The notes: generated by a model not told the origin, from the letters alone. A DNA stretch of 64,000 nt from a virus (UHGV-0198106), one strand, 5' to 3'. Counted from the first letter of the stretch, positions 11,301-56,355 are shown. A program made the numbers and translations.

Positions 11301-12353
11301 ATGTCTTTATTTGGAAAATCAGCTTCTAGCAAAACCACAGTAGCCCCTTCCTCTCAGGTTGATGCCCTGCTGAAGCAGATTGTTGCTAATGCTCAGAATA
11401 TGCAGAACAACGATCCGGGATTCATCTCCCAACAGCTGGCTGGGTTTAATGGCAACCAACAGGGTGCTCTGAACAACTTAGCAGCTTCTACTACTCAGAA
11501 GCAATTGGCTGATATGTACACACCTCGTACACAGCAAGGGTTGGACCAATTAAACGCTCTTGCTCAACAGTATCAGAATATTGTTAATGGTGGTGGAGTA
11601 ACGGCTGAAGGGGTTAATAACTTTAGTAAAGGTTTGAATAATTCGGCTCTTGCACAAGCTACTAGCAAAGCAGCTTCTAATGTCTCTCTTGGCAATGGCT
11701 CTGACTCCGGCTCCCTCCGTAGGGCTGCGGCTCAAGGGGCTGCTTTGAATGGTGCTAACACTAACCTGTCTCGTACTATCAGTGGCAAGAACATGGGTGT
11801 AAGTGCTCTTCAACAAGATCAGAACTTCCAGAGAGGTTTGCTTGGTGCTCAGTCTGGTTTAGCTGGACAGAACCTCAATCTTGGTGCCCAAGGTGTTCAG
11901 GCAACTCAACAGGCTATTCAGAATCAACTCATGGCTGGTAATCTACAACAGCAACAAGCCCAAGCTCAAGCTGATATTAATTGGCAGAACGCTATTGGTT
12001 CTCAGCAGTATGGGTGGAATCAGCTTAACAACCAGCTTAATGTATTAAACAGTGTAAGCCCAATGGCTGGGTACACGATTAAGAATGCTGCTCCGGGGGT
12101 TAACACTGGACAACAGCTCCTAGGTGCTGGTATCACTGGATTAGGTATTGCAGGGCGTATGGGTGCTTTCTCTCCTAATCAACAGACTCAGAATGCTTGG
12201 AGTTCCTATAACAACTCAGGTGGGCAATCTGGAATGGCTGGTCCTATGATTGGAGGTTCTAATCTTTCTCAACAGAGAGGTCAGTCTAACTGGTTATCCA
12301 CAGCAGGTAGTAATATCTTAGGTGGTGTCTTAGGGGCATTCGGAGCAAACTAA
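11301..12353 (+). CDS. Q/N/G-rich virion protein (paralog A)
   Basis: AAGGAGG then ATG; low-complexity Gln/Asn-rich; N-terminus MSLFGKSASSKTT and Gly-rich hydrophobic C-terminus shared with the next gene. Confidence 0.5.
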   Translation: MSLFGKSASSKTTVAPSSQVDALLKQIVANAQNMQNNDPGFISQQLAGFNGNQQGALNNLAASTTQKQLADMYTPRTQQGLDQLNALAQQYQNIVNGGGVTAEGVNNFSKGLNNSALAQATSKAASNVSLGNGSDSGSLRRAAAQGAALNGANTNLSRTISGKNMGVSALQQDQNFQRGLLGAQSGLAGQNLNLGAQGVQATQQAIQNQLMAGNLQQQQAQAQADINWQNAIGSQQYGWNQLNNQLNVLNSVSPMAGYTIKNAAPGVNTGQQLLGAGITGLGIAGRMGAFSPNQQTQNAWSSYNNSGGQSGMAGPMIGGSNLSQQRGQSNWLSTAGSNILGGVLGAFGAN

Positions 12354-15017: not shown

Positions 15018-15026
15018 TAATGTATA
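15018..15026 (+). promoter_or_regulatory. TAATGTATA motif upstream of the 1,435-aa gene (candidate phage-specific promoter element)
   Basis: Exact 9-mer ~40 nt upstream of the start codon; the same 9-mer recurs at 23543-23551 and as reverse complement at 23471-23479. Confidence 0.3.
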
Positions 15027-47678: not shown

Positions 47679-47703
47679 AAAAAAGGACTCTCCGAAAAGA
47701 GTC
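47679..47703 (-). terminator. rho-independent terminator
   Basis: On minus strand GACUCU-uuucgg-AGAGUC followed by UUUUUU. Confidence 0.7.
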
Positions 47704-47885
47704 AAGCTTTAAACACAAAAAGATATTACCCAATATCTGTGGATAACCTGCTCTTAAAATATCTATCCGACGGATGTTTGAGGAATACTCCTCGCCCTAG
47801 CATCGGCCCCATACGGGAAATATATTAAGATTAGGTTAGTTGAGTCAGAATAACTCACATAGCCCTCCGAAGAAGGCTATAGGTG

Positions 47886-48119
47886 TTACTCACCTTTCTT
47901 GGTACGGTCTTTGGCAGTTTTGCCAGTGCGGATGCGATGAGAAACGTTAACCAGAGTGCCACCATCAACTACGGTAACGCTCTTGTTTTTAGCCAGATCG
48001 AACACAGTTTTCTCTGTGCCACCCAAGCGAATTTGCTTAGATTCGCTGAAGGTTTGGGTTGATTTGGATTGGAACTGGAACGGTTGACGGATTGCATCAA
48101 TTGCACTTACTTTAGACAT
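47886..48119 (-). CDS. hypothetical protein
   Basis: Track ORF, 77 aa; AAGGAA upstream of ATG. Confidence 0.4.
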   Translation of the reverse strand: MSKVSAIDAIRQPFQFQSKSTQTFSESKQIRLGGTEKTVFDLAKNKSVTVVDGGTLVNVSHRIRTGKTAKDRTKKGE

Positions 48120-49384: not shown

Positions 49385-49627
49385 TTAATCGTAGTCAGTA
49401 TTCCAAAAGTCATAAGTAAAATCGCCCTTAGGGCAACCATATATAATGAAGTATGTCTTCTTAATCCTTTCCTTCAATGTGTAATAAAGACCATCACTGA
49501 AGTTACCAATCTTTACTTGGAAGCGTAAAGAGCGAGCATCCCTTCGAAGCATAGATATTAGCTGTACTCTGCTACTTCCAGCCATCTCTTCAAGAAGCTT
49601 CTTTGTGTTCCAATAATGAGCTGTCAT
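49385..49627 (-). CDS. hypothetical protein
   Basis: Track ORF, 80 aa; AAGGAG then ATG. Confidence 0.45.
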   Translation of the reverse strand: MTAHYWNTKKLLEEMAGSSRVQLISMLRRDARSLRFQVKIGNFSDGLYYTLKERIKKTYFIIYGCPKGDFTYDFWNTDYD

Positions 49628-49940: not shown

Positions 49941-50456
49941 CTATTTAGTTAACCAAAAACCTTTCGGCTTTTTAACAACACCAAGAATCCTACATCTCTT
50001 ATGGACAGCCGAATCACTAACACTCAGTAACCTCCCTACTACATACACGGGGTAAATGTCTATTAAAGACTGAAGAGATTCTTTTGTTATTTCAAACCGT
50101 CTGCTATCTAATTTGGCACAAAGCTGTGAGCAAAACCTTTGGTTGCTATTCTCTGAAACAAGGTAAATCTCTCCACAAAAAGAACATAACCTTTCTTCCA
50201 TGACAGCCCCATGATGGTGCCTGCTATGCTCCTCATAAGTCATGATTTCTAAATTAGATGGTTCGTTGTTTAACTTATTCTCATCCTTGTGATGAACCAC
50301 TAGGTCAGAGTTCAGTTCGACACCGTAGAAATTTTGAGCAACATATCTATGAACATACACCTTTCCAGCTTTATTGGCCATAGGGTGTGTTGGTTGGTAC
50401 ACATACAAATAACCAACACCTTTATCAACAACTGCTTTACTTAGATCTAGCTTCAT
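49941..50456 (-). CDS. HNH homing endonuclease
   Basis: HNH_3 motif VHHKDENKLNNEPSNLEIMTYEEH plus C-terminal Cys cluster. Confidence 0.7.
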   Translation of the reverse strand: MKLDLSKAVVDKGVGYLYVYQPTHPMANKAGKVYVHRYVAQNFYGVELNSDLVVHHKDENKLNNEPSNLEIMTYEEHSRHHHGAVMEERLCSFCGEIYLVSENSNQRFCSQLCAKLDSRRFEITKESLQSLIDIYPVYVVGRLLSVSDSAVHKRCRILGVVKKPKGFWLTK

Positions 50457-50464
50457 AATACCTC

Positions 50465-50568
50465 AAGAGCTCTTAGCGAGGGTGACAGGACTCGAACCTG
50501 CATACTCCATTTACTTCTTTAACGACCGCTTAGAAGGCGGGGAAGATACACCCTCACTAAGAGCTCTC
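50465..50568 (-). other. structured element: 20-bp inverted repeat enclosing tRNA-like T-arm and anticodon-like hairpin
   Basis: Arms aagagctcttagcgagggtg / caccctcactaagagctctc; on the minus strand GCAGGTTCGAGTCCTGT (T-arm-like) and CCGC-CTTCTAA-GCGG (UCU anticodon-like loop); no canonical D-arm, so not called as tRNA. Confidence 0.3.
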
Positions 50569-51276: not shown

Positions 51277-51320
51277 TTTAGCTTCCTCTTGTTAGTTTAA
51301 GTAAGAGCTGTCCCTTAATT

Positions 51321-51349
51321 AAAACAACAAAGGCCACCCGAAGGCAGCC
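51321..51349 (-). terminator. rho-independent terminator
   Basis: On minus strand GGCUGCC-uucg-GGUGGCC (two G-U pairs) followed by UUUGUUGUUUU. Confidence 0.65.
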
Positions 51350-51810
51350 TTTTATTTATTAACTGTTATAGGTCCAATTGCCTTGCTTGTTACGGATGGC
51401 TGACATTGCATGAAGCCAGAAGCCTTCCAGTTTCAGAGCACCATTAGCTACTGCATCCATACGTTCAGGGCGGTTCATACGTTTGGTTGATACTTTCATA
51501 CCTATCTCTCTCTATTAGTGGAGGCATTATTGCCAGTTGATATAGCGGATGACTCTCACTATAGAGCCAATTACTCTACAAACTAGTGAAGACTCCCTAC
51601 CCCTAGAGAGTCTCCTAAATCCCAAACCAATATGTACCCCTACATATCAGAAAGTATATCGAAAATTAACAGGTTTTAGTCTAGCACCGGATGTTTGAGC
51701 AAGCTCTCCCTAGCGGTGTGGCATATGCCTGAATTAATAAGTTAATGAGGAACACCCTCACATAGCCCTCTGATAAACACAAGGGCTATAGGTTGATGTT
51801 ACTTAGTTTT

Positions 51811-52113
51811 TTATACTTTAAGCTCGTCAGAGAGCTCCTGCTGCTTAGCAATAGCTACTCGCAAGTCTTCATTAGCACGAGCAAGGCGTAATACTTCATG
51901 GTTAAGATTCTGAAGACGCTTGTTTCTGTCCTCTACTTGCATAATAAGATCGTTGAGTGTTACTTTAACTTTCTCATTATACATCTCATCTACTTGAATC
52001 AAAGATTTATACTTTCTCTCCCAGCTTGCTGCTTTGTTTCTTAGAACAATAAATCCTATAACGCTGATAGTTAAACAGCTTACAAAAAGGAATTTATATA
52101 TCTCTAAAGTCAT
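51811..52113 (-). CDS. membrane protein with coiled coil
   Basis: N-terminal TM FLFVSCLTISVIGFIVL followed by charged helical region (100 aa). Confidence 0.4.
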   Translation of the reverse strand: MTLEIYKFLFVSCLTISVIGFIVLRNKAASWERKYKSLIQVDEMYNEKVKVTLNDLIMQVEDRNKRLQNLNHEVLRLARANEDLRVAIAKQQELSDELKV

Positions 52114-52311
52114 ATTATTTACCCTTTATCAGAGATTAAAAGTAATATTATTTAAGTAAGTTATATTTAGTAAACTTATTTTCTAAGAAATTTTCAAAGG
52201 GTCTATATACAGAGCATTACCATAGTCCCAGAATACTACCATCTTTTTCAATAAATTTACTAAGTGGTTGGTTTATAAAGGAATTTAGTTTGTCAAATCT
52301 GGCACCAGTGA

Positions 52312-52701: not shown

Positions 52702-52941
52702 TAGCTGGGCCGTTGTTATCAGAACTTGCTACCTCCTATTCTACGGGTACAAAAAAGCCCCAGCCGTAGCCGGGGCAAACCTGAAAGCAACACATGACCG
52801 TTGCTATAAATACACTCGCAAATGCACTTACAGCAACGCAAAAAGCCGCTCAAAGGCGGCTATGCGGAAGCTTCAAATGGGGAGAGGGCACTACGCGACA
52901 GAGAGAGCGTCATAGTACTAAAAGAGGGGGCTATAGTCCTA

Positions 52942-55108: not shown

Positions 55109-56031
55109 GATATTCACCTTTCAATTGTAAGGGCACTATGCCCCGCTCTCTATGAGCTTGCTTAAGTCACTATTAACTTAACTCTAACCACTCACTTTTT
55201 AAGTAGTTACAGGTAAGTGAGGCGGTCTTATCAGGAGTTAACCTTTCCGCCTCCTTATCCGTGATGTTTCATCTGGTATCTTTAATTAGTCGCTATAAAC
55301 TAAGCCGACCTGATAGCGATGATCAATCATCACAATAAGGCAGTGCGTCCGACTCTAATTAGTTACATTTATTGTAACCGTCGGCAATATCGTCTACTTT
55401 GTTTTCGCTCTCGCCTATCCTTTTGTATCAACTCTCAATCGCTAGTCATCGCCCACTACGGGATACTATTGCGAAAGAGTCATTGACCGTCTAATGTTCC
55501 GACGTTTTATATCTTTCGGCAAGTTTACTACATAAACCGACTATGTACTTTCATCATAAGATGAATCTCAAGCCGTTCACATCGTAAACGTTCACACTAA
55601 GCCTTATTGTTAAATAGCAATTTGCCACTTTTTAACCGCTCCCCGCCGCTCGCAATTGAGCTTGTATTCGTCGGACTTGTCTACCCTGATTAACTTCTTT
55701 CACTGTAGCGCCTTGTTAGCGATGACCGCCGCTACCCTTAACCGTGGGCGATTAGCTTAAGTCTCTGCGTGCACTCAGTGAATCCGTTTGTCAGTGGTGA
55801 CGTTTCCAGTAAGGGATTGCAAGATTGTTTCCTCTGATAGTTTAGAGAATCTTACACCGTTTTATCTGGCATACTTTCCGATGGTTATTATCTTCAAGCA
55901 TGTTCAACCGATATAGAAGAACGTTTAAATTGTTAAAGAGCGGTAAATCTATCAGCATGTTTACTCACGCTATGCAACTGTTAGCCGTTGTCTCGCTTCG
56001 CTTCGGAATGTTTCCCTTAGCTAATGTGCTC

Positions 56032-56236: not shown

Positions 56237-56355
56237 CTCTTTTTATCGTCCTCTTTTTATTCTTTTCCCTTATCTCGCGCGAATCTTTGCGAAAGGGCAG
56301 GACGATAAGTTTTTAAAGAGCATTTGCAAGTTTCCTTGCTTTGTTTCTGATACCC

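Follow-up and report, generated by a model that had tools for sequence, protein, structure and literature searches.

UHGV-0198106 is a viral DNA sequence of 64,000 nucleotides (nt), here called the window in its entirety, from a Kuravirus, a phiEco32-like podophage of the Gordonclarkvirinae; it shares 91-94% identity with many coliphages over 6 kb. Rightward structural genes extend to ~19.4 kb, and a leftward run of dozens of mostly small genes extends from ~58.7 kb down to 19.5 kb. In phiEco32-like phages this early/middle region is initially transcribed by the host sigma-70 RNA polymerase (PMC4281155; PMC8948821). Two unusually long spacers in the leftward early region each carry a matching hairpin, and sequence comparison indicates that in each case the hairpin is the first (P1) of about seven predicted helices in a 211-215-nt noncoding structured RNA module. 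Both modules, here termed A and B, are sense-strand elements of the long leftward early operon, transcribed by host sigma-70 RNA polymerase.

Two matching hairpins in the early region

The type A locus (window 47889-47679) lies between the gp91-like and gp90-like open reading frames (ORFs), and the type B locus (window 51802-51588) follows a gp116-like ORF; because copy B stands directly after the gp116-like gene, phiEco32 genes 113-115 are absent here. A first-pass annotation of the window had reported a hairpin with identical flanks at two sites, and this was borne out. Site 1 reads CTCAC-ATAGCC-CTCCGAAGAA-GGCTAT-AGGT at 47854-47884, correctly placed by that annotation except that its end, 47883, was one base short, and site 2 reads CTCAC-ATAGCCC-TCTGATAAACACAA-GGGCTAT-AGGT at 51757-51793. 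The pattern ATAGCC-N(4-20)-GGCTAT was found twice in 64 kb against 0.04 expected, and none of 100 shuffles contained two matches. The 11-mer CTCACATAGCC occurs exactly twice in the window.

The hairpins lie just past minus-strand stop codons, as first described. Site 1 follows the ORF at 47886-48119 (minus strand), whose TAA at 47886-47888 stands 4 nt ahead of the hairpin; site 2 follows the ORF at 51811-52113 (minus strand), whose TAA at 51811-51813 is succeeded by a second in-frame TAA at 51799-51801, which is the conserved one. P1 begins 4-8 nt past the conserved stop codon. In the minus-strand RNA, site 1 forms a 10-bp stem, UAUAGCCUUC-UUCG-GAGGGCUAUG (-17.1 kcal/mol, z = -3.6), and the stem of site 2, which has a larger loop, is 10-12 bp long (-20.2 kcal/mol, z = -3.9). 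The reported conservation of stem and flanks around differing loops holds well beyond the window, since across ~100 phages the stem base and flanks of P1 are conserved and the loop is free. The loop is cUUCGg in copy A of the window, and orthologues carry CUCC, UUCU, CCCG or loops of 7-10 nt, so that cUUCGg is not conserved at this position. Neither hairpin adjoins a U-tract, again as annotated; the sequence after P1 is GUGAG in both copies. In an alignment of the two spacers, the similarity extends ~200 nt further downstream on the minus strand, and a second exactly repeated 12-mer, CTCAAACATCCG, is present in both.

Architecture of the two modules

Types A and B share one order of elements: a (R)GU(R)AC edge with the stop codon, P1, GUGAG, P2, an AU-rich strand, P3, P4, CUAGGG(A/C), P5, (A/G)AACAUC, a return strand, P6 and a terminal hairpin. 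In the consensus model, a domain closed by predicted long-range pairing holds P3 together with an arm built of P4, a near-invariant 7x7 internal loop and P5. The consensus of this internal loop, CUAGGGM / RAACAUC, is near-invariant.

Module A is 211 nt long (47679-47889, minus strand) and runs from GUAAC, with the stop codon of the upstream ORF inside it, to the end of a terminator U-tract. Folded as a single sequence it reaches -68.7 kcal/mol (z = -4.3) with nearly all consensus helices recovered, and it scores 150.8-185.3 bits with the covariance models described below. At its 5' edge the stop codon (47886-47888) lies in the conserved (R)GU(A/G)AC, of which both forms, GUAAC and GUGAC, retain a stop. 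P1 (47858-47881) has distal pairs that covary (UA/AU; UG/CG/UA) and leads into the conserved GUGAG at 47854-47858. P2, GAGU-UAUUCUG-ACUC (47842-47856), covaries as GAGU/ACUC, GAGC/GCUC and GAGG/CCUC, and its pair 48/61 is GC in 14 sequences, UA in 13 and CG in four. Both RNAalifold and the single-sequence minimum free energy fold join the long-range 5' strands (47825-47838; LR1, UAACCU, 47838-47833, and LR2, CUUAA, 47829-47825) to the 3' strands at 47744-47757 (UUAAG, 47757-47753, and AGGUUA, 47749-47744). LR1 is invariant in type A, and LR2 is compensated in the 7-11 lineage (pairs 76/157 and 79/154). Within this domain are P3, CCC-GUAU-GGG (47808-47817), of which three complementary versions are known, and the core arm (47767-47806), in which P4 (CCGAUG/CGUCGG) and P5 (GAGGA-GUAU-UCCUC) enclose the near-invariant bases CUAGGGC (47800-47794) and AAACAUC (47779-47773). 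P6, AGAUAUU-GGGU-AAUAUCU (47721-47738), is without a counterpart in the 7-11 lineage. A helix AACAC/GUGUU that would join the 5' and 3' ends in the single-sequence fold of copy A was rejected, as orthologues do not keep the pairing.

Module A ends in an intrinsic terminator (47679-47703), found by the terminator scan as GACUCU(U)-UUCG-(G)AGAGUC followed by C and U6 (~-9 kcal/mol). The hairpin at 47703-47686 with its U6 fits the definition of an intrinsic terminator, its closing pair covaries (UG/CG/GC), and the records of SU7 and 7-11 label it a terminator. P1, with no U-tract directly after it, does not fit that definition. The earlier statement that the hairpin is not an intrinsic terminator is thus right for P1 itself, but copy A ends in one 150 nt downstream, so that termination is part of the element after all.

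Module A also contains a perfect DnaA box, TTATCCACA (47746-47738, minus strand), which is invariant in all 18 A-type sequences, including that of Salmonella phage 7-11. The only other perfect DnaA box in the window is at 12294; module B has none. The first half of the box coincides with the 3' strand of LR1, and its UCCACAG part is not explained by LR1.

Module B is the paralogous unit of 215 nt (51588-51802, minus strand), recovered at an expectation value (E) of 8e-8 with an A-only model and at 118 bits with a joint model. Its conserved TAA (51799-51801), near the 5' edge, is the counterpart of the stop in module A. P1 (51761-51790) is again followed by GUGAG (51757-51761), and P2 is GAGG-GUGUU-CCUC (51747-51759). 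A further, pseudoknot-like helix, P0, is predicted between the stop-codon segment AACAUC (51797-51802) and the P2 loop GGUGUU (51751-51756), with one covarying pair (7/48; CG in nine sequences, UG in three, UA in two). Type A has a weaker counterpart of this pairing, which is disrupted in SU7. A terminating ribosome would be expected to melt P0. The anchor-based parse described below gives P3 as GGC-AUAU-GCC (51720-51729), and the core arm (51685-51718) consists of P4 (CACCG/CGGUG), the loop CUAGGGA / AAACAUC and P5 (GAG-CUUG-CUC). P6 (51627-51650) is a hairpin whose loop, GGGG, lies within UAGGGGUA. The terminal hairpin (51588-51615), of 12 bp (-18 kcal/mol, z = -3.3), carries a second UAGGGGUA loop and is followed by CACUAGUUUGU, so that module B ends without a U-tract; four pairs of this hairpin show compensatory changes. 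These two loops hold the only occurrences of UAGGGGUA in the window.

Covariation and conservation of the fold

Orthologues were taken from phages phiEco32, NJ01, KBNP1711, ECBP2, SU7 and Salmonella phage 7-11, and from 17 metagenomic and two genome-collection stretches, giving 35 distinct sequences of the two paralogous types. All 17 metagenomic and both genome-collection stretches, retrieved with a 21-base core pattern, proved to be true members. RNAalifold predicted 47 pairs, 10 of them compensated, from a plain MAFFT alignment of the 18 A-type sequences, and 58 pairs, seven compensated, from the B-type alignment. Two covariance models were built, R1 from type A only and R2 from types A and B jointly. 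R1 recovered every B copy (E = 1e-7 to 1e-10) as well as a divergent environmental copy over its full length (E = 2e-8).

In an alignment of 32 distinct sequences fitted to the model, 96.8% of the cells are standard pairs, compared with 81.7% after shuffling, and double changes occur in 27 of the 38 pairs; the observed values were reached in 0 of 500 shuffles. When the partners were slid by 1-3 columns, pairing fell to 33-47%. Because this alignment had been fitted to the model, P3, P4 and P5 were also parsed from fixed sequence anchors, and each version of each helix was found to be fully complementary. P4 has four lineage-level sequences, CCGAUG/CGUCGG, (U)UCGGUG/CGCCGA(A), (G/U)CACCG/CGGUG(U/A) and AAUAGCG/CGCUAUU, or five counting an outer-pair variant in B. 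P3 occurs as CCC/GGG, GCC/GGC and GGC/GCC, and P5 in five versions (GAGGA/UCCUC, GAGGG/UCCUC, GAGC/GCUC, GAGAC/GUCUC and GAG/CUC) whose loops vary freely. Conserved G-U pairs, namely a U-G pair in P4 of all A copies and others in P1, would be A-C mismatches on the opposite strand, and the fold therefore belongs to the gene-sense strand. A protein-coding explanation is ruled out by stop codons and by orthologue indels of 1, 2, 4 and 6 nt, which are not all triplets.

We conclude with high confidence that the structure and the conservation of the RNA fold are well supported. The first-pass annotation had proposed an RNA processing or stability element or a protein-binding site. It was right to look to the RNA level, the element being one of the early operon's sense strand; the stand-alone hairpin it had in mind does not survive, since P1 is the first of about seven covarying helices.

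Distribution and recombination

With filters off, R2 found exactly two copies in the window; it also found two each in phiEco32 and SU7 and one in the complete 7-11 genome, and none in ~70 unrelated viral loci that share a 14-mer by chance. BLAST detected copy A in 103 phage records and copy B in 99, mostly at 94-99% identity, which is above that of the surrounding DNA (91-94%), and both copies are present in ~100 Kuravirus and Suseptimavirus genomes. The search for further copies that had been suggested with the hairpins thus returned just two per genome, yet orthologues in every related phage examined. In comparison with SU7, module A is the best-conserved long block (>200 nt), at 86% compared with 66-83% for the other alignments of at least 150 nt. 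Salmonella phage 7-11 belongs to a different family, Grimontviridae, and only 11 stretches of its DNA can be aligned with the window. Ten of them fall within genes for enzymes; module A, at 70%, makes up the eleventh and is the only noncoding DNA alignable between the two.

The divergent environmental copy (L114, 3020-3250 of JBOFGJ010000684.1) is on a 48-kb phage-like contig binned with a Flavobacterium metagenome-assembled genome (MAG). It keeps P3, P4, P5 and the invariant loop, its P1 and P2 sequences are different, and its 3' half is type B-like, with AUAUGUAGG and a last hairpin whose loop is AGGGGU. The copy lies amid small ORFs, ~2.5 kb upstream of a gene for an Srd-like 'decoy of host sigma70', and this neighborhood again indicates a phage early region. 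BLAST of the environmental copy against phages gave no match. Three candidates retrieved from IMG/VR with a relaxed core pattern (L116-L118) were chance matches that the covariance model did not recognise. The core-loop halves UGCUAGGGGGAG ... CUCAAACAUCCG, even with a CCGAUG flank, were also seen in unrelated contigs (L093 2101-2139 and L094 4664-4702, both from IMG/VR, and L092 5109-5145). These hold half-core strings only, with the other helices missing and scores of 8-13 bits, and were not counted as members; in L093 and L094 the strings apparently lie inside an ORF. Such half-core strings may have arisen by chance or may be left over from a once complete module.

The genes upstream of the module vary among phages, and its 5' edge is fixed at (R)GU(R)AC, each module starting at the stop codon of whichever ORF precedes it. 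At the edge of module B there is a mosaic junction, where the gp116-like ORF has its own TAA and the TAA of the module follows in frame four codons later. One metagenomic A copy (L098, 360-577) is a chimaera with a KBNP1711-like 5' half and an SU7-like 3' half, and in SU7-type phages copy A bears a B-type P1 loop, indicating gene conversion. The varying flanks, fixed edge, chimaera and loop swap together suggest that the module is an autonomous recombining block.

Transcription signals and other features of the early region

The transcription programme of phiEco32-like phages has been studied in detail and involves gp36, a phage sigma factor, and gp79, an inhibitor. Exact copies of TAATGTATA, the single-element promoter motif of gp36, were noted in the window at 15018, 23471 (minus strand), 23543 and 27930 (minus strand), positions in keeping with the middle/late promoter layout that has been published. 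The promoter scan found no such motif in or near either module and no conserved sigma-70 promoter inside the modules. The sole promoter-like match, a weak 9/12 site in copy A (47848-47819), is not conserved in 7-11.

A 200-nt AT-rich spacer (52114-52311) that precedes the gp116-like gene contains sigma-70-like hexamers, and module B may on this account sit just ~0.3-0.5 kb from a promoter. Two strong, tandem intrinsic-terminator-like hairpins with U-tracts (52757-52776 and 52844-52861, minus strand) lie between the gp120-like and gp117-like genes. Downstream of module B by ~240 nt, after a 46-amino-acid (aa) ORF, is a cUUCGg-tetraloop hairpin, AAAGGCUGCC-UUCG-GGUGGCCUUU, followed by GUUGUUUUAA (51329-51352, minus strand). 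The 71-nt stretch around it (51286-51356) has 94.5% identity to SU7, compared with ~80% for the adjoining DNA, and the hairpin may be a terminator or a stability element.

Between the two modules, at the place of a normal tRNA-Arg in phiEco32 and SU7, is an aberrant tRNA-Arg(UCU)-like element (50466-50567, minus strand). Its T arm is canonical and its anticodon loop is CUUCUAA; it lacks a D arm and has a ~25-nt insert preceding the T arm and an acceptor stem lengthened to ~21 bp (-50 kcal/mol, z = -6.9). Its Rfam tRNA score is 30.2 bits against a threshold of 29, and ARAGORN rejected it. An HNH-endonuclease-like ORF (49941-50456) lies directly downstream.

Comparison with known RNAs and possible functions

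Searched against Rfam 15, both modules returned nothing at the gathering thresholds and nothing relevant at E up to 10, where only chance-level matches appeared (mir-1284, GlsR10, mir-296 and PreQ1, the last at 18.7 bits against a threshold of 39). An ARAGORN scan for transfer RNA and transfer-messenger RNA found nothing. No description of the element was found in the literature searched; a catalogue of ~10,000 candidate viral structured RNAs (PMC10690425) may include the motif. The RNA family in phiEco32-like and 7-11-like phages is apparently undescribed.

Our preferred interpretation, held tentatively, is that the module is a self-contained, stable noncoding RNA that is released from the early transcript and binds a protein. 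It would be an RNA gene without its own promoter, produced within the early transcript. Its 3' end would be formed by termination in copy A; in copy B and the environmental copy it would be formed where the terminal hairpin halts an exonuclease. P1 would shield the 5' side of the RNA. The resulting RNA of ~210 nt could serve as a binding platform, either a decoy or a scaffold, for a host or phage protein early in infection, with binding through the conserved internal loop and the G-rich hairpin loops. In copy A, a leaky terminator would in addition divide the early operon in two, the genes upstream of it being strongly expressed and those beyond it reached by read-through. Small stable RNAs are known from virulent phages (the T4 species 1 and 2 RNAs), as are small RNAs that act as protein sponges (the CsrB/RsmZ type). 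Like these the module is structured, ORF-less and co-transcribed, and it has repeated G-rich loops; the resemblance is a general one only, and unlike the CsrB/RsmZ-type sponges the module has no GGA motifs. A self-contained RNA is the interpretation that fits all of the copies, A, B, 7-11 and environmental.

Several observations weigh against this interpretation. Stability of the RNA and binding of a protein are both steps that we infer purely from sequence, and neither a promoter nor a defined 5' processing site was found for the module. Most compensatory changes trace to a small number of deep lineage separations (type A, type B, the 7-11 lineage and the environmental copy), so the number of independent events is modest. 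Module B alone folds no better than its shuffles (z = -1.6), although its centroid shows P1-P6, and its long-range helices are aligned inconsistently by the model. The conserved operon-internal terminator, with the only validated early promoters of 7-11 far upstream (PMC8948821), suits a cis-acting control of termination at least as well.

Such control, in the manner of nut or put sites or by some other regulation of the terminator, is the main alternative, though in our judgement rather unlikely. Here the nascent RNA, alone or with a phage protein encoded upstream, would modify the host polymerase, which would then pass the copy A terminator and later ones and so time the delayed-early genes. 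A conserved canonical terminator is found 60-70 nt past the copy A core in three genera. In 7-11 the only two validated early sigma-70 promoters are both at the far right end (PMC8948821), which means that transcription must cross the A terminator to reach gene 111 and then the replication genes, and that leakiness or antitermination is required. The putL and putR RNAs of HK022 offer a close parallel in layout, being two related structured RNAs per genome in early operons of the host polymerase, upstream of terminators, with covarying stems and conserved unpaired bases (PMC9378689). The two modules likewise are related early copies just past stop codons and upstream of terminators, a terminator ending A and the conserved terminator-like cUUCGg hairpin lying ~240 nt past B. 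The put RNAs, however, are ~70 nt long, with two stem-loops, and promoter-proximal (PMC9378689), whereas the module, at 150-215 nt (211-215 nt in the window) and about seven helices, is three times that size, lies 0.3 to 18 kb from known or predicted promoters (~18 kb from the early promoters in 7-11), and has its own terminator in one copy. No similarity of sequence or fold to put was established. The put RNAs suppress termination without any further factor, by way of the zinc-binding domain of the polymerase beta' subunit. Copy B and the environmental copy have no adjoining U-tract terminator.

The lambda nut sites give a similar picture. They too are RNA elements right after the stop of an early gene and before a terminator, in two copies per genome, and the position of the module resembles that of nutR, which sits between cro and tR1. 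The module is, however, far larger than nut, is without a short boxB-type hairpin with a GNRA-like pentaloop, and no N-like protein was identified. The boxA consensus (YGCUCUUUA), allowing at most one mismatch, has no match on the sense strand of either module. Elsewhere on the sense strand of the early region, perfect boxA-like nonamers (YGCTCTTTA) were observed at 55934-55942, 56314-56322 and 49526-49534 (minus strand), and in the whole window, on both strands, matches with at most one mismatch number 48 compared with a shuffle mean of 34, above all 100 shuffles. The 7-11 protein annotated as Q-like has no relative beside copy B; a link to this "Q-like antiterminator" was dropped, as it does not resemble the gene that precedes copy B and gave just a weak match to a zinc finger.

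It is improbable that P1 acts as a stand-alone processing or stability hairpin, that is, as an RNase III-type site or a 3' protective hairpin like those of the T7 early transcript, and this idea survives, at the same low level, only in the form that P1 might play such a part inside the module. The hairpin is very stable, stands 4-8 nt past a conserved stop, has the cUUCGg tetraloop in copy A and, as expected of a site recognised by a protein, has an invariant stem base and flanks; for the related phage 7-11, CUUCGG-type hairpins have been suggested to act as signals for processing or stability (PMC8948821). The T7 early sites are likewise repeated, related hairpins between the genes of a polycistronic early mRNA made by the host polymerase, leaving a hairpin beside the 3' end of the upstream cistron. 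Each RNase III site of T7 is one irregular hairpin that spans about two helical turns. P1, in contrast, is one of seven helices and is never alone, the other ~190 nt being always present, equally conserved and covarying. Its stem (10 bp in A, 10-12 bp in B) is short for a classical RNase III site, below the ~20 bp of interrupted double-stranded RNA in a T7 early-type site. The UUCG loop is not kept in orthologues, and the environmental copy has a different P1 sequence yet the same P3-P5 core.

A ligand-sensing riboswitch or a self-cleaving ribozyme, with the invariant P4/P5 internal loop as its core, is very unlikely. The architecture, with covarying helices around near-invariant unpaired bases, is typical of these classes, and the copy A terminator could act as an expression platform. 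By eye, AAGAG of LR2 can pair with CUCUU in the 5' arm of that terminator; as an antiterminator pairing this was rejected, since it is not kept in 7-11. The downstream genes, however, are unrelated to one another (a 50-aa membrane protein, an endolysin in 7-11, small ORFs), copy B and the environmental copy have neither a terminator nor a platform that would sequester a ribosome-binding site, and no riboswitch or ribozyme family of Rfam 15 matched even at E = 10.

Least probable of all is a role at the DNA level. The module shares with T4-type PeSL (promoter-early stem-loop) cassettes, which are conserved intergenic stem-loop blocks that flank variable early genes at mosaic junctions (PMC2839356; PMC4122927), the possibility of acting as a homology linker for the swapping of gene cassettes, and the sharp 5' edge adjoined by different upstream genes (the gp116-like gene at window copy B), the chimaeric copy and the gene conversion in SU7 copy A are in keeping with this, as the DnaA box in every A copy is with a replication or DnaA-binding site; but PeSL elements are short promoter-plus-terminator motifs in many copies, whereas the module is four times longer, has just two copies per genome, no conserved sigma-70 promoter and RNA-type covariation, its compensatory changes and one-strand G-U pairs indicate selection on an RNA fold and not just on DNA identity, the DnaA box is single, without a cluster and half explained by LR1, and there is no GC-skew inflection at either site, the skew shifting only where gene orientation does.

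Implications for phiEco32-like phages

On the sequence evidence, a complex covarying RNA fold is common to phiEco32-like phages, to a phage of a different family (7-11, Grimontviridae) and to an environmental phage, and its predicted CUAGGGM / RAACAUC core is conserved from enterobacterial podophages to the Flavobacterium-MAG-associated phage. There is some prospect, realistic though short of probable, that the module represents a new class of phage noncoding RNA with an activity of its own, with the internal loop as its core. It might reprogramme the host RNA polymerase without a protein, as a large analogue of put, act early in infection as a decoy neutralising a host defence or RNA-binding protein, or be a new self-cleaving ribozyme acting on the polycistronic early transcript. 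The chance that its mechanism is new is likewise a realistic minority one.

Coliphages of the genera Kuravirus and Suseptimavirus are common candidates for therapeutic use, and in GenBank the best-conserved noncoding stretch in the early region of these phages carries at most the annotation "terminator". The module is a small target, with two loci, and is directly testable. If it controls read-through, it would be a new antitermination system of virulent phages, whether protein-dependent or protein-free; if it acts in trans, it would be among the very few structured noncoding RNAs known in lytic coliphages.

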